Positions 25,225 to 47,198 of a stretch of 64,000 bases of DNA are shown piece after piece. The notes beneath the pieces were generated by a model, which searched no databases, had not been told where the DNA came from, and worked only from the letters and a program-made list of their open reading frames with translations. Source of the DNA: an uncultured Candidatus Saccharibacteria bacterium. Its GTDB lineage: Bacteria; Patescibacteriota; Minisyncoccia; Phycocordibacterales; UBA9973. Each line of letters opens with the position of its first letter. The stretch's first letter is position 1. The stretch is from positions 151,516 to 215,515 of the forward strand of contig CAZCXF010000001.1 of assembly GCA_964502615.1 (NCBI GenBank), given 5' to 3'. The position numbers and the translations under genes were made by a program.

Positions 25225-26736
25225 ATGAAAAAGCAAAAGGAGCAGGAAAAAATAGGGTTTTTTATAAAAGAGCTACGTGAGAGGCGTGGGCTCACCCAAG
25301 GTGCATTTGCAAAAGAATTAGGTACATCTCAGAGTGCTGTAGCACGTATGGAAAAAGGAGACCAAAATTTCAGCACTGAACTATTATCAAAAATCAGTGA
25401 TATTCTTGAACATCAAATAGTTTCAATAAATAATTCGATAGATTTTCAAATTGTCGGTGGTAAAAAATTGCACGGTAGTATTACAACAAACTTTTCTAAA
25501 AATGGTTCAGTTGGACTTCTTTGCGCATCCCTACTAAACAAAGGCAAAACTACTCTTCATGGAATTGCTCGTATTGAAGAAGTTTATAGAGTAATTGAAA
25601 TACTAGAGAGTATTGGGGTAAGCGTTAAATGGATTGATAGAAATTCTGTCCAGATAGTTCCACCTAAAAAGCTAACTCTTGATAAAATAAACGTAGAATC
25701 TGCTATAAAAACCCGCTCTGTGATTATGCTTATTGGGCCACTTATTCATTTACTTCCGACATTCTCTATCCCCCATGCATCTGGTTGCAAGCTTGGCAAA
25801 CGCACAATTTCAGCTCATACATATGCATTGGAAGATATTGGTGTAAAAATTAAAACAACAAACTCAACTTATGAGATAGGAGCTCAAAAATTGAATCCAG
25901 CAAATATTGTAATGTATGAAGCTGGTGACACTGCATGTGAAAATATTCTTACAGCTGTTGCTAAAGTACCTGGAAAAACAACTATATCATTTGCTAGTGG
26001 TAACTATATGGTTCAAGAGATCTGTTTCTTCATTGAAAAACTAGGGATAAAAATCGAAGGCATTGGTACAAGCACTATGATAGTACATGGGGTAAAAGAT
26101 ATAGATATGGATGTAGAATACTCAAATAGTGAAGACCCTATTGAATCCATGATGTTTATATCGGCAGCTATTGCCACAGATTCAGAGTTAACTATTACAA
26201 GATGTCCCATTGATTTCTTGTCGCTTGAACTTGAAAAACTAAAGAGAATGAATCTAAAATATAAAATACTAAAAAGTTATAAATCATATAATGGACGTAC
26301 TAACTTAATAGATATAAAAATAATGCCATCAAAACTAATCGCGCTTGATGATAAAATTCATGCTAACCCTTACCCTGGAATAAACATGGATAACCTTCCC
26401 TTCTTTGTACCTATTGCAATAAAAGCAAAAGGCCAAACTATGATACATGACTGGGTGTATGAGAACAGAGCAATATACTTTACAGAATTAAATAGGCTTG
26501 GAGCAGATGTTACCCTCGCTGATCCACACAGAGTATATATTCAAGGTGGTACACAATTGAAAGGAGCTCAGGTTGTTTGCCCTCCTGCCCTTCGTCCTGC
26601 GATGATCATATTGATTGGAATGCTTGGAGCACATGGAACTTCTGTATTACGTAACGTATATATGATCAGCCGAGGATATGAGGAAATAGCTGACAGACTT
26701 AACAAAATTGGTGCAGATATTACAATACTTAAGTAA
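25225..26736 (+). CDS. murA: HTH-XRE domain fused to UDP-N-acetylglucosamine 1-carboxyvinyltransferase (MurA)
   Basis: The first 75 aa or so, 'IKELRERRGLTQGAFAKELGTSQSAVARMEKGDQNFSTELLSKISDIL', form a classic HTH_3 domain. The rest aligns to MurA, including the catalytic Cys loop 'SGCKLGKRTISAH' and the C-terminal 'RNVYMISRGYEEIADRLNKIGADITILK'. Confidence 0.85.
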   Translation: MKKQKEQEKIGFFIKELRERRGLTQGAFAKELGTSQSAVARMEKGDQNFSTELLSKISDILEHQIVSINNSIDFQIVGGKKLHGSITTNFSKNGSVGLLCASLLNKGKTTLHGIARIEEVYRVIEILESIGVSVKWIDRNSVQIVPPKKLTLDKINVESAIKTRSVIMLIGPLIHLLPTFSIPHASGCKLGKRTISAHTYALEDIGVKIKTTNSTYEIGAQKLNPANIVMYEAGDTACENILTAVAKVPGKTTISFASGNYMVQEICFFIEKLGIKIEGIGTSTMIVHGVKDIDMDVEYSNSEDPIESMMFISAAIATDSELTITRCPIDFLSLELEKLKRMNLKYKILKSYKSYNGRTNLIDIKIMPSKLIALDDKIHANPYPGINMDNLPFFVPIAIKAKGQTMIHDWVYENRAIYFTELNRLGADVTLADPHRVYIQGGTQLKGAQVVCPPALRPAMIILIGMLGAHGTSVLRNVYMISRGYEEIADRLNKIGADITILK

Positions 26737-28104: not shown

Positions 28105-29541
28105 CTACTCCATTATAGTAATATCAGAAGCTTTTATATTGTTATCTATTTCATCAGAAAAATGATTTTTCCTAACTAGAAGAACAGTAATTATACCGAT
28201 AAGTATTATTAAAGCAAGGCCTATAATACTCATTGATTTATTCGATATTGAGGTTATAGAGTTTCCTGCACTTGCACTTATATTGTTCAAGTCAATAATA
28301 TTTGAATCTCTATTTTTCGAATTAAGATTTGCCTTTTCACTATAATCACTTACCATACTAGATTTCTTATAATTTGGATAAGTATTTAGTATCTTTCCAG
28401 TTATATCTTCTAGAGTTAAATATTTTACATCTTCGTAATCAAAACCAGTTAGCTTAGAAGAGATTTTTACCTTGCTATTAGGAAGTATTATAGTGCCAGT
28501 TGGTATATCGAAAGATTTTAAGTAACTCCTTAAAACCCAGTGAGATATGTCTAACTCATAATTTGATTTATTGTAAAGTTCGATATAAGGATCTGATGCA
28601 TCACCCACAGAACTAATAGATATTTCTGAAGATAGAACTTTGAGAATAAGTCTATCTGTGGCTTGCGGTTCCTTCTCAAATGGATTTGAATAGTAAGACA
28701 AGGAAAGAACATAATCCCCTGGATATAAATAAATATGTTCAAACTTCTTTTGTTCGCTCATAGAGAAACTTGTACCGTCGCCAAAATTCCAAGCAAATCT
28801 ACCAGAAACAATTGGTTCTTTTCTTAAACCCGTAGTGCGAAAATCAATTTCAAGGGGTAAACCAGCAAACGTAGTATTTTTAGCTAAAATATTTGTGGTT
28901 ATTTTAGTAACTTCAATTTCCTTTTTTGTATTTGATCTTATATCTGTGTTCGTAGAATTCCCTCCAGTACCTGTATCCACACCACCCCCTGAACCACCTC
29001 CGCCATTTCCTCCACCACCCCCACCACTTGTTTGATTCTGAACACCTGGTGTAGGAGTTGCACCTCCCCATGAACTATTTATTTTTTGGAGAGAACTACC
29101 ATCTCCAGCTCCACCTTGACTTGAAGTAAAAGATACCTGGCTTACTATATTTAAATCTGGATCTTTTAAAGCAATAGTTTCTCCGTCGTTACTTAATCCC
29201 GTCCAACTACTATCAAAAAGTAGTCCTGAGTAATTTGGCCAATCAACTCGAAACTTTGCTGAATCTTGAGTTATAACTGCATAGCCACCTGCAGGAATAC
29301 TTGAATTACCTTGTGGAACAAGTGAGTGCTTAGTATTGTCAGAGAAGAAATACCAATGCGAAAAATCAGTGCTTTCATTACCATTGTTGTAAACCTCTAC
29401 CCATTCGCGACCAGTATCAGTACCGTCGAGATCATACATTATTTCTGTAATCTCAAAAGAAGCGCTTGCAAGATGAGACCAAGATAAGAATAAAAATATA
29501 GTTATTAATATAATTTTTGAAATTCTTCCAAAAACTTTCAT
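28105..29541 (-). CDS. Secreted lamin-tail-domain (LTD) protein with a Gly-rich linker and a C-terminal TM anchor
   Basis: Signal peptide, then 'ITEIMYDLDGTDTGREWVEVYNNGNESTDFSHWYF', the LTD signature. A poly-Gly stretch follows and a hydrophobic helix sits near the C-terminus. Confidence 0.65.
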   Translation of the reverse strand: MKVFGRISKIILITIFLFLSWSHLASASFEITEIMYDLDGTDTGREWVEVYNNGNESTDFSHWYFFSDNTKHSLVPQGNSSIPAGGYAVITQDSAKFRVDWPNYSGLLFDSSWTGLSNDGETIALKDPDLNIVSQVSFTSSQGGAGDGSSLQKINSSWGGATPTPGVQNQTSGGGGGGNGGGGSGGGVDTGTGGNSTNTDIRSNTKKEIEVTKITTNILAKNTTFAGLPLEIDFRTTGLRKEPIVSGRFAWNFGDGTSFSMSEQKKFEHIYLYPGDYVLSLSYYSNPFEKEPQATDRLILKVLSSEISISSVGDASDPYIELYNKSNYELDISHWVLRSYLKSFDIPTGTIILPNSKVKISSKLTGFDYEDVKYLTLEDITGKILNTYPNYKKSSMVSDYSEKANLNSKNRDSNIIDLNNISASAGNSITSISNKSMSIIGLALIILIGIITVLLVRKNHFSDEIDNNIKASDITIME

Positions 29542-29545
29542 AAAA

Positions 29546-31939
29546 TTATTCTTCTAATATTTTTCTTAAAACTTCTTCGGGAACCTCTTTTTTAGGCTGA
29601 GGTTTCTGCCAAGAATTATTATTTGCAGGAATATTATTAGGAACTACCTGATCAGTATTTTGTGGTTGTGATGAATTTACTGGCTTAGATTCAATTTTTT
29701 GAATTATGGGAACCTCTATTTTAGGTGGCATTGGTACCTCTGGTTTCGGGGGAATCTGTACTTCAACTTTTGGAGGAACAGGGATTAGTGGTTCTACTTT
29801 TGTCTCAACCTTTGGTTCTATTTTTGGCTCTTCTACAACTATTTTCGATTCTTTTATAGGTTCAGGAATAGTATTACTGATAGAAATAGACTCTGGAGCC
29901 CTTACTTCAGGTATTTTTATAACCGGTTGTTCAACTTTTGGTTTAATCTCTTCTAGAATAGGTTTTACTTCCACTGGTTTAACTTCAACTTTAGTAACCT
30001 CTGCGGGTTTTGTTTGAGGTGGAGCAACTTTGGCCAATAAATCTTTAAGTGAAGCTTTTTTCTCTTCAGAAGCTTCTTTGGTTGGTACAGATACAGTTGG
30101 AATATTAGTTTCTGGTTTTTTTAAAGTTGAAAGTGATACCGGAGTAGGAGTTTCTTTTTTTATTTCAACGACAGGTGGATTAGTAGGTTGTTTTTGAGAT
30201 CTATCCCCGCCAATTTTTTCTAGCAATCCTTTCAGTAGTGGAGATGGACCAGAATGTTTCTTTTCAGTTTGATTATTATTTCTCTGAAAATTATTGGTGT
30301 TATTGTTTTTGTTAAATGGTGGTCGTCCTTGCCCAGACTGGTTTTGGTTGGGAGTAAATCCGTTTTTATTAGGGGCCTTATTACCACCAGCATCAGTAAA
30401 CTCAATACCTAGCATTGCAAGAGGTGAAGTAGAATTCTTTTCTTCTTGACGTGCAGAGCGAGAAGCTACGAATCCAGTCTGTGGCTTTAACTCACCACTT
30501 TTAATTTTAAACATACAGTCTTTACAATACACTGGCCTACCCTCTTTAGGCTCAAAAGGGACCATTATAGACTTACCACAATTTGAACAATCTGCTTTAT
30601 ATTTTGCTTCACCTTCAACAGTCTGAAGTGTTCCACTCCATTTATTTATTTCGGCTTCAACTTCTTCACGTGGACGAGCATAGAGTTTCCTTGATGACTC
30701 TATTATTTTTTCTTTGACTCCTGCTGAAGGATCAATCTTAAGAGGTGGTAATGTACTTGCAGAAAAAGGTCTACTTGTAACACCATCAATCATGAGCTTT
30801 AGATATATGTGGTAGTTTGGAAGATTAACTAGATCCTGAGCGGTAAATTCTGGTTCAAATTCTTTTTCAATAAATTCTGCATCATCAGCACCAACTCGAA
30901 AAATTATCATAGTTCCAACGTTTCCGAAAACTGCATCTCTTACGGCTGTACCATTTTCATTTGAAAGCTGAGCCGTGTATTGGTGAGCAATTATAAGATT
31001 TAGGCGGTATTTACGAGCTTCGGAAAGAATATTTGCAAAAGAATCAGTTGCAAAGTTTTGGAACTCATCCACATATAGGTAGAAATCTTTACGTTCATTT
31101 TCTGGTATACGCACACGTTCCATCGCAGCAAGCTGGATCTTGGTAATAATCATACCTCCAAGAAGCGCAGAGTTGTCTTCACCTACACGTCCTTTTGAAA
31201 CATTTACAAGGAAAATCTTCCCTTCGTTCATTATCTTGAAAATATCAATTGTAGATTTAGATTGACCAACTACGTTACGGATGATTGAAGTTGATAGGAA
31301 TTGTCCAACTTTGTTTTGAATCGGGGCAATTGCTTCATTTCTAAACTGTTCACGCCATTGTTCGTACTCATGAACCCAAAAGGCTTTGACCACGGGGTCT
31401 TTTAAGTTGCCAATAATCATTTGACGATAGTCTTTGTCTACGAGAAGTCTTGGAATACCTAGGAGTGTTGTACCTGGAGTATCAAGAAGTGCCAAGATTG
31501 CGTTATTTAGAATGTATTCCATACGAGAACTCCAAGCATTAGCCCAAATCTTGGTAAATATTCCCATAAGTCCAGAAGCGACTAAGTGTTTGTATTTTGG
31601 ATCATCTAGTGCAATAACATTGAAACCAACATTGAAATCAATATCTGCTGGGTTAAAGTATATTACGTCTTTGGCACGATGGTCAGGAATAAGGTGAAGA
31701 ATTTCTTCAACCAACTCTCCGTGTGGATCAACCACACAAACACCTTCCCCATTATTTATATTTTGAACTATTAGATTAGATAGGAGTACAGACTTACCGG
31801 TACCAGATTTACCGAGCACATACATATGTTGCCTTCTGTCTTTCCTCTTGATACCAAATATATTATTGGTACTGCGAAAATTGGTCTTAGCGAAGTAAGT
31901 TATATCTCGATTGTGTGGAATTTGGTTGTTCGGATCCAT
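29546..31939 (-). CDS. TraD/VirD4-like (FtsK/HerA superfamily) soluble P-loop ATPase with an internal Zn-ribbon and a long Pro/Lys/Glu-rich disordered C-terminal tail
   Basis: Walker A 'VLGKSGTGKS', Walker B 'FYLYVDEFQNFAT', coupling-protein-like 'SEARKYRLNLIIAHQYTAQL...GNVGTMIIFRVG'. There is a CxxC-x19-CxxC ribbon 'CSNCGKSIMVPFEPKEGRPVYCKDCMF' and about 300 aa of low-complexity PK/E-rich tail. It is a paralog of 38563..40041. Confidence 0.7.
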   Translation of the reverse strand: MDPNNQIPHNRDITYFAKTNFRSTNNIFGIKRKDRRQHMYVLGKSGTGKSVLLSNLIVQNINNGEGVCVVDPHGELVEEILHLIPDHRAKDVIYFNPADIDFNVGFNVIALDDPKYKHLVASGLMGIFTKIWANAWSSRMEYILNNAILALLDTPGTTLLGIPRLLVDKDYRQMIIGNLKDPVVKAFWVHEYEQWREQFRNEAIAPIQNKVGQFLSTSIIRNVVGQSKSTIDIFKIMNEGKIFLVNVSKGRVGEDNSALLGGMIITKIQLAAMERVRIPENERKDFYLYVDEFQNFATDSFANILSEARKYRLNLIIAHQYTAQLSNENGTAVRDAVFGNVGTMIIFRVGADDAEFIEKEFEPEFTAQDLVNLPNYHIYLKLMIDGVTSRPFSASTLPPLKIDPSAGVKEKIIESSRKLYARPREEVEAEINKWSGTLQTVEGEAKYKADCSNCGKSIMVPFEPKEGRPVYCKDCMFKIKSGELKPQTGFVASRSARQEEKNSTSPLAMLGIEFTDAGGNKAPNKNGFTPNQNQSGQGRPPFNKNNNTNNFQRNNNQTEKKHSGPSPLLKGLLEKIGGDRSQKQPTNPPVVEIKKETPTPVSLSTLKKPETNIPTVSVPTKEASEEKKASLKDLLAKVAPPQTKPAEVTKVEVKPVEVKPILEEIKPKVEQPVIKIPEVRAPESISISNTIPEPIKESKIVVEEPKIEPKVETKVEPLIPVPPKVEVQIPPKPEVPMPPKIEVPIIQKIESKPVNSSQPQNTDQVVPNNIPANNNSWQKPQPKKEVPEEVLRKILEE

Positions 31940-32588: not shown

Positions 32589-34283
32589 TTAATTCACTTC
32601 CTGTTGATAGCAGGATTCGCAATAAACTATATCGGGTTGATTCGGTTCGTAACTAGTTTGAAACTCATTTTTACAACCTTCTTTCATACATGAACGATTG
32701 TAAAGTTTTGGTTTATTTATAAATTTATAACGGTCTAAAAACCTACAGTTATGACATTTATGAGGCAGAGGTAACCCAATCCGTTTATAAAATTGCAATT
32801 CAATCGGAACTATTCTATATGCTTTTTTACAATTTACGCATGCAATAATTTCTTTTGTAATATCTTCTGAGACTTCAGTAATTGAATCTGGCAAATCGTT
32901 ACCGCTTATAGTAGTCTGAAATTCACGTGCATTTGGCTCGCGCCACAAGAAACCTTTCTGCAATGCTTCTTCTTTGCTTATTGGGACATAATCTTGTGCC
33001 AAACTTTCGTTGTATGCCAAGGGTGAAAAGGAAGATGGGAAGAAGTCCCCATATGTATATACTTTTCCTTGCTCATCGACATATGGCATATCTTTCATAT
33101 GCTGTACTATCTTTGGAACAAGCGCTTCGTATTCTTCCTTTGAATACTGTTTATTTAAAATGCAGTATTGTTTTTTCTTTAGACTAACACAACCAAATGA
33201 ATTTGATGCACCAAAACAATAACCACAGTATTCTAGATCTCGGACATTCCCAAAACAATTGAAACAGTATTTTAATCCATAAGCTCCATCTCCACATGTC
33301 ATGCATTCGTAGGCATTTTCTATTCCCATAAAAAGTTGGCAGGAATCATAGGAGTTAGCGGCTTTCAAAACACTTATCTGTACATAACGTAAGTTCTCAG
33401 CATTCTCTACAGAAAAAGAGTCTCTTACATTTTTTGAATCACTAACCCTATCCCCTGTACAATTTAAATTTCTTGAACCATGATAGTATTTTACTGGGAA
33501 TTTTTGCCAAAAATCTGGAATAGTATCATTTAATTGTTTAATTGATTCATAGGAACTTAGATTTATTTCAGATATTCTTTTCTCATATTCTTCTCTAGAG
33601 AGCGGCTCATTAAAAAAATAATAAGATTTACCACGTAGATTTACGCAACCAAAACAATTTGTACATCCACGAAGCCCTTTGCTAAACCATACATCCACAC
33701 AACTTTCACAATCAACAGAAAACATAGTTTGGTAAGATTTGTACACCATTACACATTCATAGCATAGCTCGTCATCTATCATTTCATGGGAATCAAATGA
33801 ATTTTTTACATTAGTTACCTTTACTAAATATCCAGAATCTTCTATAAAATCTGCATCAAAACATAGATATGCATTCTTTAGCCTCCCTGCCTCATTGCAA
33901 TAGTCTGAATTTATCATAAATCCAGCAGAAGACTTTGCCATAATAGGTACACGGTTGAGTAGTGATTGGAATTGTTTGAAGAATGGTACTGAGAAATCGT
34001 ATTCTACCCCGTAATCCAATGCTTCCCATTCGTCACCATACCAATAAGTGGTTTCATATGTTTGCATAGGTGCTTCGGCTGGAATACCTGAAAAGGAGTC
34101 ATTACCAGTATGAGCATCTTTTCTTCGAAATAAATTGCGTTCATTTCTCCAAGTCAACCGACGAACCATACGACACTCCGGACACCAAGTAGGTACTGGA
34201 ACCTTCATCTTTTCGTAGAAAGAAAAATCATCCGGTTCGATATTGAAATCTTTTTTACAATTTTGGCAGTTTTTTGTTTCCAT
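32589..34283 (-). CDS. Cysteine-rich multi-zinc-ribbon protein, paralog C (564 aa)
   Basis: N-terminal CxxC-x22-CxxC ribbon ('NCQNCKKDFNIEPDDFSFYEKMKVPVPTWCPECR'), internal CxxCxGC modules and C-terminal ribbons ('CVNCKKAYRIVPIELQFYKRIGLPLPHKCHNCR', '...VYCESCYQQEVN'). The 2nd ribbon is lost relative to paralogs A and B. Confidence 0.8.
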   Translation of the reverse strand: METKNCQNCKKDFNIEPDDFSFYEKMKVPVPTWCPECRMVRRLTWRNERNLFRRKDAHTGNDSFSGIPAEAPMQTYETTYWYGDEWEALDYGVEYDFSVPFFKQFQSLLNRVPIMAKSSAGFMINSDYCNEAGRLKNAYLCFDADFIEDSGYLVKVTNVKNSFDSHEMIDDELCYECVMVYKSYQTMFSVDCESCVDVWFSKGLRGCTNCFGCVNLRGKSYYFFNEPLSREEYEKRISEINLSSYESIKQLNDTIPDFWQKFPVKYYHGSRNLNCTGDRVSDSKNVRDSFSVENAENLRYVQISVLKAANSYDSCQLFMGIENAYECMTCGDGAYGLKYCFNCFGNVRDLEYCGYCFGASNSFGCVSLKKKQYCILNKQYSKEEYEALVPKIVQHMKDMPYVDEQGKVYTYGDFFPSSFSPLAYNESLAQDYVPISKEEALQKGFLWREPNAREFQTTISGNDLPDSITEVSEDITKEIIACVNCKKAYRIVPIELQFYKRIGLPLPHKCHNCRFLDRYKFINKPKLYNRSCMKEGCKNEFQTSYEPNQPDIVYCESCYQQEVN

Positions 34284-34284
34284 A

Positions 34285-35979
34285 TTAATTTACTTCTTTT
34301 AAATAGCAAGACTCACAATAAATAATCTCTGGCCGACCTGGGGCGTAACTTGTATCAAATTCATTATGACAGCCACCCTTCATACAATTCCTATGCCAGA
34401 GTTTGAAAGGATTTCTTCTAGCAACACGTCTAGAATGTCGACAATGGAAACATCTTCTAGGTATTGGGATTTCCATTTTCCTATATAGTGTAAGTTCATC
34501 TCCGACAATTTTATAATTCCTATTACAATCAATACATTTTAAAACCTCACTTGTTATAGAGTCTGGGACATCAAAAATACTCTCTGGAATATTTTCTGGC
34601 ACTAACGTCTCGCGACCGACTGTACGCTGTATATTATCTTGCCATTTATAGCCTAATGAAATTGCCTCTTCTTTATTTAGTGGGAAATGTTCCATAGCTA
34701 TAGTTTCATTGTACCCAAAAGGAGCAATCTCAACTGGGTAAAATTCTCCATATTTATACACTAATCCACGTTGATCTATATAAGGCATTGTATTCATATG
34801 CTCTATAATCTTAGGCAATATTTCTTCATATTCTTCTTTGGTATATTCTTTATTTAGGATGCAATACTTTGCATTGCGTAAAGAAACACATCCAAAAATA
34901 TTTTTTGAAGAATGGCAATGTTGAGAATATTGAATGTTTTGGCTCTTTACAGAAAAAACACCAAAAAAATTATTAAATGAGTGATCGCACACTACAGAAT
35001 CGTAACATTCTTCAATCTCGCCAGACATGGTTATATCATAAGAACCTTTGTTGTCATTTGAATACTCAGCATATTTACAATTCTCTAATTTTTTTACTAA
35101 AAAAGAATTCTTAGTGTTTTTACTATAAGAAACGATATCTCCAGTACAGTCAAAATTCTGCTTCATCCAAGCATATCTTCTAGGATAATGCAGAATAAAT
35201 TCATCATATTCTTTTTGAGCTTTTTCTACTCCACTGAAAGTGTCTAATCTATATTCCTTCAAAATATTTTCATATTCCTCTTTTTCGTATTGTTTATTCC
35301 TAAAATGGTATCTTTTGTTTCTAAGACCAGTACACATGAAGCAATCGGAGCAGTTCTGACAATCGTAAAGAAATTGTGAGTTTATACAAGATCTACTAAA
35401 AAATGAGTGCTTAAGCATGTAGCCATGCGAACAATTTATACATTCATATAAATACTCAGCTTCTGCCATATTTATCATCCCGTCTATAATATTTTTTCCA
35501 GCAAGAATATAGAAGCTATACATTATGTTCTCTATATGCCAACCTGAAAAAACCATATAACAGTTCTTAGCAAACCATATGTCGTGAGTATATTCACAAT
35601 TTAAACTAGCTATTCCATCGTCATTTACAACCGCCATCTGTGGAACTCTATAAAGTAATTCTTTGAATTGTTCAAAAAATGGTTTTGAAAAATCATAGTC
35701 CTGTGCATAATCTTTTGGGTCCCATTTGTCACTCCACCAGCATTTATTGCAATAAACTATAACTCCAGAATCAGGAGAATAAATTGATACGACAGACTTT
35801 TGGCAAAGTTCACAAGTGCGTGAATAAAGAGATAAACTGTTGCGCCAAGCATGACGCCTCTGACTTCGACATTCTGGGCAAAAGGTAGGCGCTGGAACTT
35901 TTATCTTTCCATAGAAAGAAAAATCATCCGGTTCAATGGTAAAATTATTTTTACAATTTTGGCAGTTTCGGGTTTCCAT
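34285..35979 (-). CDS. Cysteine-rich multi-zinc-ribbon protein, paralog B (564 aa)
   Basis: Same architecture and collinear with A and C, separated from C by 1 nt and from A by 2 nt. It has the second ribbon 'CELCQKSVVSIYSPDSGVIVYCNKCWW'. Confidence 0.8.
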   Translation of the reverse strand: METRNCQNCKNNFTIEPDDFSFYGKIKVPAPTFCPECRSQRRHAWRNSLSLYSRTCELCQKSVVSIYSPDSGVIVYCNKCWWSDKWDPKDYAQDYDFSKPFFEQFKELLYRVPQMAVVNDDGIASLNCEYTHDIWFAKNCYMVFSGWHIENIMYSFYILAGKNIIDGMINMAEAEYLYECINCSHGYMLKHSFFSRSCINSQFLYDCQNCSDCFMCTGLRNKRYHFRNKQYEKEEYENILKEYRLDTFSGVEKAQKEYDEFILHYPRRYAWMKQNFDCTGDIVSYSKNTKNSFLVKKLENCKYAEYSNDNKGSYDITMSGEIEECYDSVVCDHSFNNFFGVFSVKSQNIQYSQHCHSSKNIFGCVSLRNAKYCILNKEYTKEEYEEILPKIIEHMNTMPYIDQRGLVYKYGEFYPVEIAPFGYNETIAMEHFPLNKEEAISLGYKWQDNIQRTVGRETLVPENIPESIFDVPDSITSEVLKCIDCNRNYKIVGDELTLYRKMEIPIPRRCFHCRHSRRVARRNPFKLWHRNCMKGGCHNEFDTSYAPGRPEIIYCESCYLKEVN

Positions 35980-35981
35980 GA

Positions 35982-37682
35982 TTAATTAAACTCTTGTTGG
36001 TAGCATTTTTCACAATAAACTATTTCAGGTCTATCTTTGGAAAAAGCAGTAGTAATATTACTATTACATTTAGCACAGTTCCTTGACCATAAGTGTATTG
36101 GATTGAGGCGAGAAAAATGAGCTTTTTGCCTACACTGCGGACAGTTATGTGGAACTGGGAGATTCATTTTTTTTAATAAATTAAGTTCAAGTGGTCCAAT
36201 TTTATATCCACGACCACATTTTTCACATTTTATAATTTCACTAAGAATAGATTCAGTAATTTGGTTAATGGTATTAAATAGTTCTGTGGCATTTATTGTT
36301 GTTTTATATTCCAATTGATCAGCTTCATGCCACATATATCCCATAGAAAGGGCTTCTTCTTTTGTTTTTGGGAAAAACTTCATTACATCAGATTCGTTAT
36401 AGCCAAATAAATTAAATTTAATAGGATAAAATTCGCCATAACTCCACACACGACCCAACTCATCTACATAAGGATTTTTTTTCATATCTTCAACAATTTG
36501 AACTTTGAGTTTCTCGTATTCTTCCTTTGAATATTCTTTATTCAAAATACAGTAGGATTTGCGTTTTAGATTTACGCATCCGAAGACATTTTTACAAGCA
36601 GAGCTCCACATAGAATATTCAATATTCATACTATCTGGGTAGCAACTATTAGAAAATTTTATATTACTTGCTTTCTCGCCAGTCGAGTGAGCCTCATATA
36701 TGAGGTCAACATTTGCACCCCACCCAGAGTAATCGTAGCAATCACGAGCCGTAGGAACTGTCACGAACTGAACATATCTAGAGTCTTCCACACTAGTACA
36801 AAGGTATAAATCTTGTGAATTTTTTGATTCAAATACATACTCGCCAGTAATATTCAAATTCATTGAATTGCCGGTGTAAGATCGATAAGGTTTTGTGAGC
36901 CAAAATGCGCGAGAACTTTCAATTAAGCCTTGTAGAGTATTCCATGAATTCAGGCCTAATTCTTTTACTTTAAGATCATAATCTTCCTTTGAATACTTTT
37001 CATTAAAAATACAATATGATTCTCCTCGTAAATTTGCACATCCTATACAATTTGTACAATTGTAACAATTACGAGAAAACCAAACATCTGTACATGCATC
37101 ACATTCTTCTGAAAAAAAAGTTTGGTAACATTTATTAATCCCTAGTGAGTTATAGCAAAGTTCCGATTCGCGAGCTCTCATACAATCAGAGGAATCTTTC
37201 AGTTGTAAAATAATTGAGGAGTGAGTAACGTTTTCAGCGTAATCTGCCCAAAAAGTAAGATAACAATTTCTTAACCAAGATGCTCCATTGCAGTATTCAG
37301 AATTTATCATTGAAGGACCGAGTGTTTCTGTCGCAACCCATGGTGTCTTTCTTGAAAGTTCATAAAGTTGTTCGAAAAAGTTTCTATTAGGATCATAATC
37401 CATAGCATACTCAGTACCATCCCAATCATCTGCCCACCAACATTCTGAACAGTAAACTATAATAGGGTTATCTTTATGATACATAGAGAGTGTTCTTTTT
37501 TTACATTTATCACAATCACGAAAATATACCGTCCAAACAGTTTTTGAAGCATTCCTCCGAATAATTCTACATTCTGGACACCATGTAGGATGAGGCACAT
37601 TGATTTTTTGATAGTAGAGTTTATCCCTCTCATCAATAATAAAATCTGTTTTGCAATTTTGGCAGTTTCTAGTTTCGTTCAT
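35982..37682 (-). CDS. Cysteine-rich multi-zinc-ribbon protein, paralog A (566 aa)
   Basis: Same architecture. It includes a CxxCxxCxxC module 'CYNCTNCIGCANLRGESYCIFNEKYSKEDYD' and the repeat 'GCVNLKRKSYCILNKEYSKEEYE'. It overlaps the upstream nucleotidyltransferase gene by 14 nt. Confidence 0.8.
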   Translation of the reverse strand: MNETRNCQNCKTDFIIDERDKLYYQKINVPHPTWCPECRIIRRNASKTVWTVYFRDCDKCKKRTLSMYHKDNPIIVYCSECWWADDWDGTEYAMDYDPNRNFFEQLYELSRKTPWVATETLGPSMINSEYCNGASWLRNCYLTFWADYAENVTHSSIILQLKDSSDCMRARESELCYNSLGINKCYQTFFSEECDACTDVWFSRNCYNCTNCIGCANLRGESYCIFNEKYSKEDYDLKVKELGLNSWNTLQGLIESSRAFWLTKPYRSYTGNSMNLNITGEYVFESKNSQDLYLCTSVEDSRYVQFVTVPTARDCYDYSGWGANVDLIYEAHSTGEKASNIKFSNSCYPDSMNIEYSMWSSACKNVFGCVNLKRKSYCILNKEYSKEEYEKLKVQIVEDMKKNPYVDELGRVWSYGEFYPIKFNLFGYNESDVMKFFPKTKEEALSMGYMWHEADQLEYKTTINATELFNTINQITESILSEIIKCEKCGRGYKIGPLELNLLKKMNLPVPHNCPQCRQKAHFSRLNPIHLWSRNCAKCNSNITTAFSKDRPEIVYCEKCYQQEFN

Positions 37683-38562: not shown

Positions 38563-40041
38563 TTATATTAATGGTTCACTAGCTTTTTCTTCAACAACTT
38601 TTTTCTCTTCTTTGTCGCCATAAACAGAATTTTTACCACCAGTAATAGCAGCTTTTTCTTGAGCTGAGCGAATAATTGTAGACTCTTCTTCTGCAATTAG
38701 GCGCTGTGCTTCCCCTGCAGGAATAGCATAAGTATTTCGAGACGCTTCAATAACACGATCACGATAAGATGGATGAGTCGCAGGTAGAACGCGAAGAGTT
38801 TCAGCAGAGAATGGATCATATGATTCCCCGTCGATTGTCATCTTCACATAAAATTCCCCTACTCCTAAGTTGATCATATCTTTCACATCAAATATTGGAG
38901 AAAATTCTGGCTTGAGTTTTACAGCATCATCACCTCCCACGCGGAAAGAAATAATAGAACCTACGTTACCGAGCACTGCTGCTTCAACTTTTGCTGGAAT
39001 CTGCCCTACGTACTGGTGAGCCATTGTTAAGTTGATTGCATACTTACGAGCCTCGGAAAGCAAGTTTTCAAATGTATCTGTTACTACGTTTTGGAACTCA
39101 TCCACATATAAATAAAAATCTTTGCGGAGATGTGCTTCCATTTTGGCACGAGCCATTCCAGCTTGTTTAATCTTAGTCAAAAACATCGCTCCAAAGAAAG
39201 ATGAATTCTCTTCTCCGATTTTTCCTTTTGATAGATTAATCAAAAGAATTTTTTGATCATTCATGATTTGCTCTATATCAATTTTATTTTCTTTTTGTCC
39301 GAAAATATTTCGAAGCATTGGATCAGATAGAAATTGACCGAGCTTGTTAACAAGCGGGATGATAGCATCAGTATCAAATTTCTCAGACCAGTCAGCAAAT
39401 TCGATAGCCCAGAATCTTTTAACCATGTCGTCCTCGATATATTCCACCACCTTCTGACGATAGTTACGATCAGTAAGCATAGATATCATTCCTCGCATAG
39501 TAGCGTAAGGATAGTCTAGAAGCGCAAGTGTGGTAAAACGAAAAACGTGCTCAAGACGAGGAGTCCAGTTTGCTCCGAATTGTTTACGGAGAACTTCAAT
39601 CAGACCTTGGGTAAGCTGATGTTTAAATGTTGGGTCAACATTTGCGAGAGGATTGAAAGATGATGGAAAATCTATATCTCCAGGATCAATAATACAGACA
39701 TCGTTTATACGATTCTCAGGGATAAAACCTAAAATATCATCAATAAATTCCCCGTGAGGATCTATGACGCAAACTCCGTGTCCATATGCAATATCTTGGC
39801 GAACCATGAGCTCTTGGAGTTTTGATTTACCTACCCCAGACTTACCGATAATATACAAATGTCTTCTACGATCTACACGCTTTATACCGAAAACGAACTT
39901 CTTTTCTTCAAGAGCTGCAACGTAATTTGTTCTACCAATAAAAGAAACCTCATTAGGATCAACTTGTCCAAGTACAGGTAAATCCGGAGGCGGCGGAGCA
40001 TATTTAATTATTTGAATCTTGTTGGGCTTGTTGAGTGCCAT
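38563..40041 (-). CDS. TraD/VirD4-like (FtsK/HerA superfamily) soluble P-loop ATPase, paralog of 29546..31939 without the Zn-ribbon and tail
   Basis: Shared N-terminal 'FGIKRVDRRRHLYIIGKSGVGKS', 'VCVIDPHGE', 'FYLYVDEFQNVVT' and 'SEARKYAINLTMAHQYVGQI...GNVGSIISFRVG'. Confidence 0.7.
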   Translation of the reverse strand: MALNKPNKIQIIKYAPPPPDLPVLGQVDPNEVSFIGRTNYVAALEEKKFVFGIKRVDRRRHLYIIGKSGVGKSKLQELMVRQDIAYGHGVCVIDPHGEFIDDILGFIPENRINDVCIIDPGDIDFPSSFNPLANVDPTFKHQLTQGLIEVLRKQFGANWTPRLEHVFRFTTLALLDYPYATMRGMISMLTDRNYRQKVVEYIEDDMVKRFWAIEFADWSEKFDTDAIIPLVNKLGQFLSDPMLRNIFGQKENKIDIEQIMNDQKILLINLSKGKIGEENSSFFGAMFLTKIKQAGMARAKMEAHLRKDFYLYVDEFQNVVTDTFENLLSEARKYAINLTMAHQYVGQIPAKVEAAVLGNVGSIISFRVGGDDAVKLKPEFSPIFDVKDMINLGVGEFYVKMTIDGESYDPFSAETLRVLPATHPSYRDRVIEASRNTYAIPAGEAQRLIAEEESTIIRSAQEKAAITGGKNSVYGDKEEKKVVEEKASEPLI

Positions 40042-43486: not shown

Positions 43487-44011
43487 TTACCCAAAAAGTG
43501 ATTTAATTTTTTCCCATGGTACAGATACGAGAAGCGTGCCGAGAAAAACCATAGCAAGTCCAATTATTGCTTGAACTGTAATCCCCTCTGCCAAGACAAC
43601 GGTTGCAAATATAGCAGTAAGAACAACAGAGAGCTTATCTATTACAGTTACAGTTACCGTGGGACCACCAGCAAGTGCTTGGTAGAAAAATATCCAAGAG
43701 AGTGCCCCACCAAGACCAGAAAGTATTACAAAAAGCCATTGCTTTTGAGAAAGAGAATGGATTGCTGTTATTGAAAGTTTACCAAATGAAAGTGCTGCAA
43801 TACATACAACTACTGCCATAACAATCCCTCTTATAGCAGTGAGCAAATTAGCATCGACACCTTTAAGTCCGAGCTTTGCAAAAATAGTGCCCATACTTGC
43901 CATTACAGCCCCTAGTAACGCGTAAATAATATACATGATTCCATTATACCAAAAGAAACCCCTTTCGGGGTCTCTTTTGCTATAATAACTAATCTTCTTT
44001 TTTTGGAGCAA
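43487..44011 (-). CDS. Single-EamA-domain (DMT superfamily) small membrane transporter-like protein
   Basis: 4 TM helices with 'ALSWIFFYQAL...' typical of EamA. The start is probably an internal Met (near 43936), which removes the overlap with the upstream gene. Confidence 0.55.
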   Translation of the reverse strand: MLQKKKISYYSKRDPERGFFWYNGIMYIIYALLGAVMASMGTIFAKLGLKGVDANLLTAIRGIVMAVVVCIAALSFGKLSITAIHSLSQKQWLFVILSGLGGALSWIFFYQALAGGPTVTVTVIDKLSVVLTAIFATVVLAEGITVQAIIGLAMVFLGTLLVSVPWEKIKSLFG

Positions 44012-47000
44012 GAGGATTTAATTCTATAGGAGTAAGTGTGGGGATTGTAAGTTTAAGATCTGGACACATAATATTATTCACCTCTGTTTGAGTAGTGATA
44101 TAGAATATACCTGTTGGAACCTTGAATCCCCATGGACTTAGAACTGTATCCGCATGCTTTAATTGGAATTTCTTTAGATATTTCTCTGTATTTAAACCAA
44201 ATTTACCATCTTCTTTGATTCCTGCTTCCATAGTATCGTTTAAGAATTTTTGTAGTTTCTTTACTGCTTCTACATCATTCTTATAACCTCGGCGCAAGAA
44301 TTTATCCACGTATATTCCACAAGATGTTGAGGCGCCAAGAACCTGACCTTGCGGTTTTAGAAATCCTCCTCCACCCCTACCTCCACTTCCTGAAGTAGTA
44401 ACTGGATCTGTCTCATCATTATCATTTGGATTCCATGAGTTATCTTCACCAGATTTACATCCTGGATCAAGAGAATCAACTAGACCATCGTTATCATTAC
44501 TTATACCATCAGAGCATTGAGCACCTTGGTATACTTCAGAATCAATATTTCCATCGTATGATCCTGGATTATTTACATTATGATCTGTGTGACAAGCTGG
44601 ATCTTTATCATCTTTTAATCCATCATCATCATTGTCTTGTCCATCTGAACATACTGGTGTGTGTTCATCTATAACAACTTTTGTATTTGTTACAGTACAC
44701 ATTGCAGTGCCATTCTCAGTAATATTTACTGAAGAACAATTGTCATAAGTTGTATTGTATCCTGAAGCTGAAACTTCTGTAACAGTATGAGTACCCACAC
44801 TTACAGTAACATCGTTTTGTCCATCAGATTCAAAGGCTACTGGATCACCTCCATCAATTTTGAAACTAAAGTTTGAAGGGTTTGCTTCCTGATCCCCAAC
44901 TATTACCTTCTTTACTTGTAAAATTCCAGTTTTTGGAGTTTCAGGACAATCATTACTTACAACGTGAAGTTTGTATATAAGACCTGCTGGGTTACTCTCA
45001 AATGTTGAACCTTCAACTGCAAAATTAGTGACGTCAAAAGATATGCTATTTAAGCCTGATGTTATGTAAGAAACTACATCAAAAGTTTTTGCAGGATTAT
45101 AGTTAAACTCTGTAGGATCTGCTATAACACCACTACCATTTCCATTAATTGATCCAACAAAAGAATTGTCTGCAGCGACATCAAGAGATGCTGAGACTGG
45201 ATTACCAACTACAGTAAATGATTTACTAAATGATTTTGTTTGTTGGGTTCCTCCTAGGAAATCATTTAAATTATTCCATATCCATGTAGCACCAGGGATA
45301 CTCGTCCAAGCTCCATGTGGTGAAGCAATTGGTGTTGCAGAAACTCCATCTACAGTATTTGTATCGTCACTTACAACATCGAGAACTTTATCTCCGCATT
45401 GATTCTGTTCACAAGTTTGTGTATCTACATTCCATGTACCACCTCCACCTGTACAAATATTGTTAGCACAAGGACCTTCTGTTTGTATTCCGTTTACTTG
45501 TGGGCAAACATCTATAACTTCATCTACACATTTCTTATTCCAAACAATTATAGTGGAATCGCCATCTATAGTGACCGTTGGTATGGTTAAACTCCTAACA
45601 CCGTTTTGAGCTTCCTGTAATGTTTTACCCGTTGTGTATCCAACAAGTTCGTAAGATGGTTTATTTTGATTTGAACAACTTGATCCAACAAGTGTTGTAG
45701 TTAGATCTTCAGCTGCTGAGTATGATTCACCACCAATCATATTGTATGTAGACGATTCATAATGTATGTCTCCTGCTCCTTCATCACTATTTGGACCTAG
45801 GTAAAATGGATATCCTGGTGCATCAGGTTTATACATCGGGAAAGATACAGAGTTTGCATTTTCATCTGTTGCTTGTACACCATCTATATATTTGTAGATA
45901 TGAACTTTACCATCTGCTTTTGTTGGCTTTAAAGTATTAAACCCAACACAGTAGTAATTAGCATTTGCAACTACTGGGCTTATGTAATCATAGTTGTCGT
46001 AGTTTAAAACATCTGAATTACAGTAGAATTCAGCAGATCTCTTTGCATTTGTTCCATCTAGATCTGTTGTAGCGCCTGAGAATTGATGATAAGTATTAGG
46101 TAATTGTTCACGTAGCCAAACTAAATTGCCTACAGGAACTTGAACCGTACCACTTGAAAATGGTACCCATGATCCTCCACCGACTGTAACATTATCTCCA
46201 GGATTTCCTGTTCCTTCTGGTGCCCATTCAAATATCCAAGGTATAATGTGACAACTTGAATTATGAGCTACATAATCTGTTGCTGTTGTAGCAGTGATAT
46301 CTGCCCCACCTGAACCCCAATTGGGTAGATCAAATTCATTATCACAAACTACTTTTGTAGCATGAACTGTAGCAGTATCTGGAACACACTGATTCTGTTC
46401 ATTTAAGTGCATACCTTCAGGGACAGTTGTTTGTTTACCGGAAATATTCGGACATACATCTATTTGAACATTGAAAGATATACAGTGATATAAATGATTC
46501 TTTTGAATAGAACTAATACTGTCGTAGTTGTCGTAATTTTGTACATCAGTATTACAGTACATTTCTGCAGAATTCTTTGCGTTTGTACTGTTTAGATTTG
46601 AAGTAGCTCCAGAGAATGGTATATATCCATTTTGCATTTGCTCACGAACCCAAACCTTTTTACCTTCAGGAACTTCAGGTAAATCATTTTGGTCGAATGG
46701 ATGCCACGCACTACCAGCAGGACCTACTATATTATTACCAGGATTTGCTGTACCATCTAACGCCCATTCAAACACCCAATGAGATTCATGACAGTCTGGG
46801 TGAGAATTTAAGAAACTTTGAGCAGTCCCAGCTGTTATAGATGGGCCATTGTTACCCCAGTTTGGTAAATCAGATTCATTATCACAGATTATTTTTGTTG
46901 GTGAGATCTGTCCAGTTCCAGGAATGTGAGTCTTACACCAGTTGTCAGCAGTATTGTTTTTGTTATCTGGCTTACCATCTTTTGTAGGACCATCATATAA

Positions 47001-47198
47001 AAAATCACCGTGATCAAGATGGTTTGATAGAGCGCTATTATCAATTTGAATCCCATTCCACGGGTTATTTTGAGAACCAGTAGTATGGCAAATATTTACT
47101 TTTCCTTCATTTTCAGCAAAGGCAAATTGTACTTGTGTATTTAAACTAACAAAAGATAGGACAAAGAAAAACGATAGAAACTTTTTAAAATTTTTCAT
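43989..47198 (-). CDS. Large secreted surface protein (1069 aa) with an internal roughly 150-aa tandem duplication and a C-terminal peptidoglycan-binding (PG_binding_1-like) domain
   Basis: Signal peptide. Duplicated block 'K(V/I)(V/I)CDNE.DLPNWG..G..IT..TA......H..CH...W(V/I)FEWA..GT.NPG.N...'. C-terminal 'VKKLQKFLN...IKEDGKFGLNTEKYLKKFQLKHA'. Confidence 0.7.
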   Translation of the reverse strand: MKNFKKFLSFFFVLSFVSLNTQVQFAFAENEGKVNICHTTGSQNNPWNGIQIDNSALSNHLDHGDFLYDGPTKDGKPDNKNNTADNWCKTHIPGTGQISPTKIICDNESDLPNWGNNGPSITAGTAQSFLNSHPDCHESHWVFEWALDGTANPGNNIVGPAGSAWHPFDQNDLPEVPEGKKVWVREQMQNGYIPFSGATSNLNSTNAKNSAEMYCNTDVQNYDNYDSISSIQKNHLYHCISFNVQIDVCPNISGKQTTVPEGMHLNEQNQCVPDTATVHATKVVCDNEFDLPNWGSGGADITATTATDYVAHNSSCHIIPWIFEWAPEGTGNPGDNVTVGGGSWVPFSSGTVQVPVGNLVWLREQLPNTYHQFSGATTDLDGTNAKRSAEFYCNSDVLNYDNYDYISPVVANANYYCVGFNTLKPTKADGKVHIYKYIDGVQATDENANSVSFPMYKPDAPGYPFYLGPNSDEGAGDIHYESSTYNMIGGESYSAAEDLTTTLVGSSCSNQNKPSYELVGYTTGKTLQEAQNGVRSLTIPTVTIDGDSTIIVWNKKCVDEVIDVCPQVNGIQTEGPCANNICTGGGGTWNVDTQTCEQNQCGDKVLDVVSDDTNTVDGVSATPIASPHGAWTSIPGATWIWNNLNDFLGGTQQTKSFSKSFTVVGNPVSASLDVAADNSFVGSINGNGSGVIADPTEFNYNPAKTFDVVSYITSGLNSISFDVTNFAVEGSTFESNPAGLIYKLHVVSNDCPETPKTGILQVKKVIVGDQEANPSNFSFKIDGGDPVAFESDGQNDVTVSVGTHTVTEVSASGYNTTYDNCSSVNITENGTAMCTVTNTKVVIDEHTPVCSDGQDNDDDGLKDDKDPACHTDHNVNNPGSYDGNIDSEVYQGAQCSDGISNDNDGLVDSLDPGCKSGEDNSWNPNDNDETDPVTTSGSGGRGGGGFLKPQGQVLGASTSCGIYVDKFLRRGYKNDVEAVKKLQKFLNDTMEAGIKEDGKFGLNTEKYLKKFQLKHADTVLSPWGFKVPTGIFYITTQTEVNNIMCPDLKLTIPTLTPIELNPLAPKKED

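Follow-up and report, generated by a model that had tools for sequence, protein, structure and literature searches.

A coupling-protein-like ATPase of Patescibacteria with a zinc ribbon and a putative motif-bearing disordered tether

Introduction

Why should one of two paralogous motor proteins carry a long appendage that its paralog lacks, and what might such an appendage do? This question is raised by a stretch of 64 kb of DNA from an uncultured Candidatus Saccharibacteria bacterium (contig CAZCXF010000001.1, positions 151,516–215,515; the whole stretch that was analysed is hereafter called the window), which encodes two related ATPases, ATPase-1 and ATPase-2. A sequence-only reading, made without database searches, had attributed to ATPase-1 an embedded zinc ribbon and a long Pro/Lys/Glu-rich tail, and this architecture was borne out, as the protein matches the ribbon families TIGR04272 and PF23477 and its tail spans 317 residues. 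We propose, with a probability of about 0.6, that ATPase-1 is an orphan, soluble motor resembling type IV coupling proteins (T4CPs) but independent of any type IV secretion system (T4SS), and that its ribbon and disordered tether dock one or more membrane partners.

Orphan T4CPs of this kind, as well as their domain architecture, are already known. Indeed, the database names of the relatives of ATPase-1 include ‘CxxC-x17-CxxC domain-containing protein’ and ‘type IV secretion system DNA-binding domain-containing protein’, and a 2025 survey (Quinonero-Coronel et al. 2025, PMC12102498) counts 5,713 VirD4-type homologues over 2,918 genomes of Patescibacteria, places only 148 of these near virB4, proposes an exaptation of these homologues and poses their function as an open question.

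A predicted TrwB-fold motor without a membrane anchor

Residues 32–350 of ATPase-1 match the Pfam family PF10412 (TrwB_AAD_bind, E = 5.7e-14), the core having weaker Pfam matches to T4SS-DNA_transf, TraG-D_C and DUF87, and TrwB of plasmid R388 is the sole match for a profile of the homologs among all PDB sequences. A first AlphaFold2 model, built on 32 close homologs, was unusable (mean pLDDT, the per-residue confidence score of the model, of 46.6) and was replaced by a second one, based on an alignment of 143 sequences from three homolog searches, for which mean pLDDT reaches 91.9 in the core (residues 1–440) and 92.3 in the ribbon. The core of this model begins around residue 10 and includes an all-alpha part, with helices over residues 114–224; compared with the PDB by Foldseek, the model retrieves TrwB first (E = 1e-13, TM(target) 0.61–0.66, approx. 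410 of 424 residues), followed at lower ranks by HerA, Cag-beta of Helicobacter pylori and the Legionella type IV coupling complex. As modelled, ATPase-1 is a TrwB/VirD4-fold P-loop motor. Since TrwB, FtsK and HerA are ring translocases acting on DNA, this motor presumably forms a ring as well.

ATPase-1 displays neither a transmembrane segment nor a signal peptide, its most hydrophobic 19-residue Kyte–Doolittle window scoring 1.2 and not being N-terminal, and 19-residue hydropathy windows revealed no hydrophobic segment in ATPase-2 either. The scanned open reading frames (ORFs) of the window include no gene for VirB4, a relaxase or another T4SS component, and in related loci the neighbours that carry a label likewise lack VirB4, T4SS and relaxase genes. 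Thus, lacking both a membrane anchor and a linkage to a T4SS, ATPase-1 has the fold of a coupling protein but fails two of the features by which T4CPs are defined. Its scores for the NCBIfam equivalog and subfamily models, such as TraD and the VirD4-like CD1115 family, also fall short of the cutoffs (at best 50.3 versus 366 and 45.8 versus 250 bits), i.e. approx. 50 bits against equivalog cutoffs of 250–650; ATPase-2 likewise remains far under all the TraD and VirD4 cutoffs of NCBIfam. A replacement of FtsK was considered and set aside: FtsK_SpoIIIE (PF01580) stays below its Pfam cutoff (14.5 versus 24 bits) and is matched by the Walker A region alone; the term FtsK does occur in a transcriptome paper on Saccharibacteria (TM7x).

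One database homolog identical at 100% is annotated as 38 residues shorter, which fits a start at Met39 of the ATPase-1 ORF. Residues 10–38 being strongly conserved among the homologs (79–97%), we prefer the longer start.

The zinc ribbon, an optional module

The only cysteine cluster of ATPase-1 (C451/C454/C472/C475 in CSNCGKSIMVPFEPKEGRPVYCKDC, 30515..30589) directly follows the core. The sequence-only reading had recognized these four cysteines, but with a spacing of 19 residues between the pairs, which has to be corrected to 17. The resulting ribbon scores 53.0 bits against TIGR04272 (CxxC-x17-CxxC; cutoff 36) and 50.4 bits against PF23477 (zf_Tbcl_2; cutoff 27), and because both curated cutoffs are exceeded, it corresponds to a recognized domain rather than to a chance pattern of cysteines. 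In the model, it forms two beta-hairpin strands and a helix (pLDDT approx. 92). Two small proteins of the CxxC-x17-CxxC family from M. mazei were shown by inductively coupled plasma mass spectrometry to bind zinc (PMC12704099), and zinc binding would be expected of the ATPase-1 ribbon by family analogy. No other protein with such a ribbon was found in the window or in related loci.

Every one of the 120 closest database homologs, which belong to Candidatus Nomurabacteria, Paceibacterota and other Patescibacteria, possesses both the tail and the ribbon, the latter with the exact x17 spacing. This answers the check proposed by the sequence-only reading, whether homologs keep both elements, and, together with the continuous ORF, confirms that the tail is not a frameshift artefact. 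The constancy of the ribbon does not extend to the wider family, in which it was detected in just 54 of 119 diverse relatives from the candidate phyla radiation (CPR); the ribbon is for this reason best regarded as an optional module.

A disordered tail with conserved motifs

The tail differs sharply in composition from the core, with 14.8% Pro, 12.6% Lys, 11.4% Glu and 1.9% aromatic residues, against 4.0% Pro and 9.2% aromatic residues in the core, and with a net charge per residue of 0.02 it is nearly neutral. It matches no Pfam family at E <= 0.1. The disorder suggested by the letters is also supported by the second AlphaFold2 model, as mean pLDDT is 49.2 over residues 491–780, compared with approx. 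92 in the core and ribbon, and 69.5 over the last 17 residues; the only helices predicted within the tail are at residues 567–575 and 788–796. As ATPase-1 has no signal peptide or transmembrane segment, the tail lies in the cytoplasm.

The view that everything beyond the ribbon is of low complexity holds for the disorder and the Pro/Lys/Glu richness but misses the conserved elements within. The conservation of the tail columns, computed from a 32-sequence alignment, alternates between strongly conserved stretches, with islands and end peptide attaining 71–94%, and poorly conserved spacers at 4–36% (table 1). The post-ribbon segment, in which pLDDT drops from 82 to approx. 55, leads into an Asn/Gln/Gly-rich spacer, which is followed by three conserved islands, the first and third of which read GPSPLLKGLLEKIG and KEASEEKKASLKDLLAK in the alignment. 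A long Pro/Glu/Val/Lys spacer then separates the islands from the C-terminal peptide; it contains 20% Pro, no aromatic residue, and weak in-frame tandem repeats of 12 and 15 nt. It is this stretch that the sequence-only reading had quoted as typical of the tail, yet it is the least conserved part of ATPase-1 (4–36%) and, judged by its conservation, it is a spacer rather than the functional element. Antisense to the tail lies a 103-aa Gly/Ser/Thr/Phe-rich ORF (29706..30017, + strand), in all likelihood a side effect of the low-complexity sequence that codes for the tail.

At the other extreme, of the 120 closest homologs, whose tails measure between 195 and 372 residues, 118 terminate in SWQK-x5-KEVPEDVLRKVLE-COOH, an end also present in 73 orthologs from a set of 80 related GTDB loci. 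Relatives of 50–58% core identity have replaced the spacers by Gln/Asn-, Pro/Ala- or Glu/Arg-rich ones, while the motifs hSLxxLK (island 2, in relatives of 52–58% core identity), SLKxxLxxAh (island 3, occasionally as their extreme C-terminus) and the terminal EVPEDxLRxxL are kept, often without the ribbon; the end peptide itself persists whether the ribbon is present or not. To judge from the alignments, such a pattern is the signature of a disordered tether bearing short linear motifs, and not of junk or of a rigid spacer. A possible mimicry of the FtsZ C-terminal peptide was also considered: DIPxFLRK and the ATPase-1 EVPEDVLRK are offset in spacing by one residue, and no FtsZ gene was found in the window or the related loci examined.

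Table 1. Coordinates of ATPase-1, its parts and the associated genes in the window (res, residues; %, column conservation in the tail alignment).
Feature	Residues	Position	Strand	Evidence or remarks
ATPase-1 gene	1-797	29546..31939	-	uninterrupted ORF, 797 aa + stop codon
TrwB/VirD4-fold P-loop core (predicted) with all-alpha insertion, no transmembrane segment	1-445	30605..31939	-	Pfam, PDB, Foldseek, hydropathy
Walker A, GKSGTGKS	43-50	31790..31813	-	invariant in 143-sequence alignment
Walker B, YLYVDE	287-292	31064..31081	-	D291 and E292 invariant
CxxC-x17-CxxC zinc ribbon, Cys 451/454/472/475	446-478	30506..30604	-	TIGR04272, PF23477
Tail, 317 aa	481-797	29549..30499	-
Post-ribbon segment, ...IKSGELKPQTGFVASRSARQEEK.STSPLAMLGIEF	479-514	30398..30505	-	80-94% up to res 510; 59% in block 511-520
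Asn/Gln/Gly-rich spacer	515-558	30266..30397	-	27-33%; pLDDT 44-49
Island 1, EKKHSGPSPLLKGLLEKIG	559-577	30209..30265	-	76-91%; helix predicted 567-575
Island 2, TPTPVSLSTLKK	597-608	30116..30151	-	TPxPxSLSxLKK; approx. 58-71%
Island 3, PTKEASEEKKASLKDLLAK	619-637	30029..30085	-	69-94%
Pro/Glu/Val/Lys spacer	638-775	29615..30028	-	4-36%; pLDDT 41-54
C-terminal peptide, SWQKPQPKKEVPEEVLRKILEE, terminal helix 788-796	776-797	29549..29614	-	51-79%; pLDDT 65-74
ATPase-2, 492 aa		38563..40041	-	same core, N-terminal motif IQIIKYAPPPPDLP, short charged linker, EPLI-COOH
LTD/PKD surface-protein gene		28105..29541	-	4 nt past ATPase-1 stop, same orientation; Pfam LTD E = 9e-23

The wider family and its end peptides

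A search of 1.84 billion representative proteins returned 24,126 clusters with E <= 1e-3, of which 6,673 reached E <= 1e-30, and the species-representative genomes of GTDB contained 541 stretches that fitted the search patterns and encoded a relative. The architecture of ATPase-1 is conserved in hundreds of species of Patescibacteria. Extensions of more than 150 residues at one end or the other are the rule (119 of 136 complete sequences among the best 150 clusters), and three end peptides recur among the family members. The ATPase-1 type corresponds to (K/R)E(V/I)PEDxL(R/K)xhLE; a second class, LKPG(E/D/Q)xhx(F/L), dominates in sequences named Doudna-, Kerfeld- and Portnoybacteria; and the third, F(E/D)xP(I/L)(I/L/V)-COOH, includes ATPase-2. 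Ending in a conserved peptide is thus a design that other subfamilies share with ATPase-1.

An origin of the family from phages or other mobile elements was considered and discarded, as just nine relatives were found among 2.9 million viral contigs. These nine sequences on IMG/VR contigs (L088–L096) are relatives at 40–55% identity and mostly devoid of tails; they may be either misbinned CPR DNA or true phage copies.

ATPase-2, a ribbon-less paralog with conserved ends

ATPase-2 shares 45% identity with ATPase-1 over 443 residues. Its description as a plain paralog is accurate in that it has two cysteines only, no ribbon and approx. 50 residues beyond the core; it overlooks a conserved N-terminal motif and the terminal EPLI-COOH. 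Indeed, 118 of 120 ATPase-2 homologs end in (E/A/Q)PLI-COOH, and the N-terminus MALNKPNKIQIIKYAPPPPDLP is common to them. The asymmetry of the pair is genuine and has been conserved in evolution. The division of labour formerly derived from it, with one paralog anchoring and the other powering, has lost its footing: Walker A and B are intact in each, and both therefore look like active motors. The recruiting half of that proposal fared better, as the tail has the anatomy of a recruiting tether, which makes such a role plausible.

In 53 of the 80 GTDB loci, the ATPase-2 gene lies no more than 10 kb from that of ATPase-1, and it is immediately upstream in five of them, with the order ATPase-2, ATPase-1, LTD gene (L054, L055, L059, L061 and L076).

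Linked genes: an LTD/PKD surface protein and DUF8128

The gene directly downstream of ATPase-1 encodes a single-pass surface protein composed of a signal peptide, a lamin-tail domain (LTD), a PKD domain, a second LTD, a C-terminal transmembrane segment (residues 438–456, hydropathy score 3.07) and a 22-residue cytosolic tail ending in ...SDITIME. Gene linkage was scored in the 80 GTDB loci, 75 of which include the downstream DNA, and in 74 of these 75 an LTD ortholog directly follows the ATPase-1 ortholog on the same strand, with a gap of 0–48 nt, while the other neighbours of the pair differ between loci. The LTD orthologs end in a conserved peptide of the ..SAKDMTIIE type (D-M/I-T/K-I-I/V-E-COOH), and LTD proteins of distant lineages have a similar end, E-(F/W/Y)-x-I-(I/E)-E. 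When distant relatives without a ribbon served as seeds for a scan of metagenomes, 20 of 80 loci likewise had an LTD/PKD protein beside the ATPase; in one of them (L136) the LTD/PKD identity was confirmed by Pfam and the gap is 0 nt. No intrinsic terminator was found between the ATPase-1 and LTD genes on the coding strand, which is weak evidence, as overall counts are at background.

Other CPR classes display a different neighbour. In each of the five distant CPR lineages that were looked up, among them Doudna-, Jackson-, Portnoy- and Saccharibacteria, the gene immediately upstream of that of the ATPase encodes DUF8128 (PF26449), which has an N-terminal transmembrane segment; a protein with Sigma70_r4 and HARE-HTH domains precedes DUF8128 in four of the five, with SecD and SecF further upstream in three of these. 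The cluster SecD–SecF, Sigma70_r4/HARE-HTH, DUF8128 and T4CP-like ATPase recurs in L081, L083, L085–L087 and many of L144–L176. Moreover, at least 56 of 150 representative clusters have DUF8128 and the ATPase core in a single protein, with DUF8128 on the N-terminal side, which, read from the sequences, is a link of the Rosetta-stone type. In the window and the 80 GTDB loci, DUF8128 was detected neither by phmmer nor by a custom profile. The N-terminus of ATPase-2, IQIIKYAPPPPDLP (39970..40041, − strand), aligns with the motif h-S-R-K-x-PP-x-LP, which in fused proteins of the third end-peptide class marks the passage from DUF8128 to the core. Because of this alignment, ATPase-2 appears to descend from such a fusion through loss of DUF8128, the N-terminal motif being its putative remnant.

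A proposed soluble motor with a docking tether

The observations presented above concern the fold and disorder of ATPase-1, the family of its ribbon, its pattern of conservation and its linkage to other genes; from them we infer docking, recruitment to the membrane and the nature of the substrate. ATPase-1 would act as the soluble ring motor of a Patescibacteria-wide, orphan T4CP-like family. Its appendage of ribbon and tether would bring it to membrane-associated partners, or bring these partners to it; the contact points would be the end peptide (KEVPEDVLRKVLE-COOH, an amphipathic helix) and the three islands, and the Pro-rich spacer would give the tether its reach. As candidate partners we consider the LTD/PKD surface protein and ATPase-2, to which DUF8128 is added in other lineages. 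Because the LTD gene is co-operonic and DUF8128 is paired with, or fused to, the ATPase elsewhere, the motor is most likely located at the cytoplasmic face of the membrane, where it would act on a polymer, by analogy probably a nucleic acid. The proposal of a ring motor with a recruiting tether leans on precedents for each of its components, namely TrwB, FtsK and HerA for the motor, TraD and TraM for the tail and the zinc-binding CxxC-x17-CxxC proteins for the ribbon.

Several observations weigh against this proposal. The ribbon is missing from about half of the distant relatives and, judging from this distribution, is not essential to the core function of the family. The neighbourhood offers candidates only, no partner was found for any tail motif, and a monomer model of AlphaFold2 cannot show docking. 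The synteny with the LTD gene among close relatives reflects shared ancestry in part. A number of distant LTD proteins stop at their transmembrane segment while the adjoining ATPase keeps its end peptide; the LTD cytosolic tail hence cannot be the only receptor, and its candidacy as receptor for the ATPase-1 end peptide is weakened. The three end peptides are also confined to their own families in the window and the 80 loci (approx. 1.5 Mb of related DNA), so that no shared hub is visible; a common ‘hub’ peptide was rejected for lack of any other ORF family with one of the three ends. Finally, in Southlakia epibionticum a T4CP homologue is reported to be non-essential for epibiotic growth (PMC12102498).

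Alternative explanations

We weighed four alternatives to the docking tether, taken here in order of decreasing probability. Zinc ribbons often bind nucleic acids, and the ribbon and Lys/Glu/Pro tail could thus be imagined as an arm that binds the substrate and feeds DNA or RNA to the motor. The FtsK/HerA/T4CP superfamily moves DNA, and the gene cluster of other CPR classes includes a DNA-binding protein with Sigma70_r4 and HARE-HTH domains, both of which would suit such an arm. However, the tail is almost charge-neutral, the acidic and amphipathic end peptide fits protein binding better than DNA, and the ribbon is optional in the family; we consider this explanation unlikely.

ATPase-1 could also be a genuine conjugative or secretory coupling protein serving a T4SS encoded elsewhere in the genome, its tail recruiting substrates in the manner of TraD and TraM. 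Its T4CP similarity in Pfam and NCBIfam and its TrwB fold would then be straightforward, and T4CP genes can indeed sit far from virB4, and Patescibacteria do encode essential T4SSs. Nevertheless, the N-terminal transmembrane domain is missing, scores lie far under every NCBIfam equivalog cutoff, the window contains no T4SS or relaxase gene and the conserved linkage is to LTD, DUF8128 and SecDF genes. The small number of homologues near virB4 in the survey cited above points in the same direction, as does the contrast between the non-essential homologue of S. epibionticum and the essential T4SS of that organism (PMC12102498). A remote T4SS therefore seems quite improbable to us.

The terminal helix and the motifs might instead fold back on the ring of ATPase-1 itself, or on that of ATPase-2, and thereby serve in autoinhibition or assembly; the C-terminal tail of SecA and the regulation of Cag-beta by CagZ offer comparisons. 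End peptides specific to each subfamily and paralogs that are often adjacent, as in the five loci listed above, would be consistent with this view, and CagZ-regulated Cag-beta is among the fold matches. By contrast, a spacer of 140 residues is needlessly long for binding in cis, and the monomer model places the helix without confidence (pLDDT 65–74), which leaves little credit to this option.

Finally, the idea that the tail is a neutral low-complexity expansion or a TonB-like rod spanning the envelope is largely refuted and hardly credible: a hypervariable spacer with microrepeats and a Pro/Glu/Val/Lys composition like that of TonB and of the titin PEVK region speak for it, but the likeness to TonB perceived by the sequence-only reading is compositional only, the islands and the near-invariant end peptide are conserved, and ATPase-1 has no signal peptide, membrane anchor or TonB family match (at E <= 0.1), so that its tail is not in the envelope.

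Beyond the docking tether favoured here, a much more speculative picture can be drawn. The paralog pair and the LTD/PKD protein, with DUF8128, the Sigma70_r4/HARE-HTH protein and SecDF elsewhere, might conceivably form an unrecognized, CPR-wide and T4SS-independent membrane translocation machine, in which the subfamily end peptides (KEVPEDVLRKVLE, LKPGExhxF and EPLI) would serve as an assembly code plugging each motor into its membrane partner. We regard this as a tentative possibility, rather doubtful at present; if true, the machine could be involved in the uptake or export of nucleic acids at the host interface.

Other features of the window

The window is an ordinary stretch of chromosome (GC approx. 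35%) with a housekeeping context, including genes for LepA, MurJ, LeuRS, YchF, MiaA, Alr, MurB, MurA, UDG, Ddl, UvrABC, Tgt, MreBC and tRNAs. Three tandem Cys-rich paralogs of 564, 564 and 566 aa (32589..37682, − strand) each carry a CxxC...CxxC ribbon-like motif at the N- and the C-terminus and match no Pfam or NCBIfam family; their homologs recur beside the ATPase genes in many related loci. A MurA-like enolpyruvyl transferase (25225..26736, + strand) bears an N-terminal XRE-type HTH_3 domain, an unusual fusion, and the leucyl-tRNA synthetase (6169..9027, − strand) has a NUDIX domain match at residues 413–508. A 1069-aa protein (43989..47198, − strand) has no Pfam match, its sole match being to the NCBIfam acidic double-disulfide repeat.

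Comparison with known systems

The orphan T4CP homologues of the 2025 survey are the population to which ATPase-1 belongs, with approximately two per genome and seldom near virB4 (PMC12102498). A term search of this source did not return the word ‘zinc’ (the tail, the end peptides, DUF8128 and the LTD gene were not searched there). Our literature search retrieved no description of the motif-and-spacer anatomy of the tail or of subfamily end peptides, no mention of the optional nature of the ribbon or of the tight ATPase–LTD gene pair, and no report of the adjacency and fusion to DUF8128 or of a derived, truncated ATPase-2. The family thus appears modular, being composed of a motor, sometimes a ribbon, a disordered tether and a subfamily end peptide, and its motors are genetically tied to the LTD/PKD protein and to DUF8128 (adjacent or fused). 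The peptides, the candidate partners and an interaction-predicting fusion are as many handles for finding what this motor moves in ultra-small symbionts.

By Pfam, PDB sequence and fold, ATPase-1 shares the P-loop core and the all-alpha domain with TrwB (R388), VirD4 and TraD. It differs from them in having no N-terminal transmembrane anchor and no linked T4SS or relaxase, in its chromosomal housekeeping context and in the zinc ribbon behind the core. A parallel for its tail is TraD of the F plasmid, in which the last residues of a flexible C-terminal tail dock the relaxosome protein TraM (PMC7555446). The tail of ATPase-1 has about twice the length of that of TraD and contains multiple internal motifs, and the end motif of TraD is acidic and aromatic-terminated, whereas ATPase-1 ends in a predicted helix (..EDVLRKVLE). 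The ribbon has the same Cys spacing as the CxxC-x17-CxxC family and an above-cutoff hidden Markov model score; the M. mazei members, however, are stand-alone small proteins, while that of ATPase-1 sits behind an ATPase core.

The overall design is also met outside the coupling proteins. FtsZ has a variable C-terminal linker followed by a conserved C-terminal peptide, FtsK has a Pro/Gln-rich linker, and the C-terminal tail of SecA carries a zinc-binding docking module. ATPase-1 has in common with them the succession of a folded NTPase, a variable disordered linker and a short element that, in ATPase-1, would serve for docking. This is an analogy and not a homology, and the ribbon of ATPase-1 stands before the linker; nevertheless, the two features by which such tethers are recognized, a variable disordered linker and a conserved short terminal peptide, are both found in ATPase-1.

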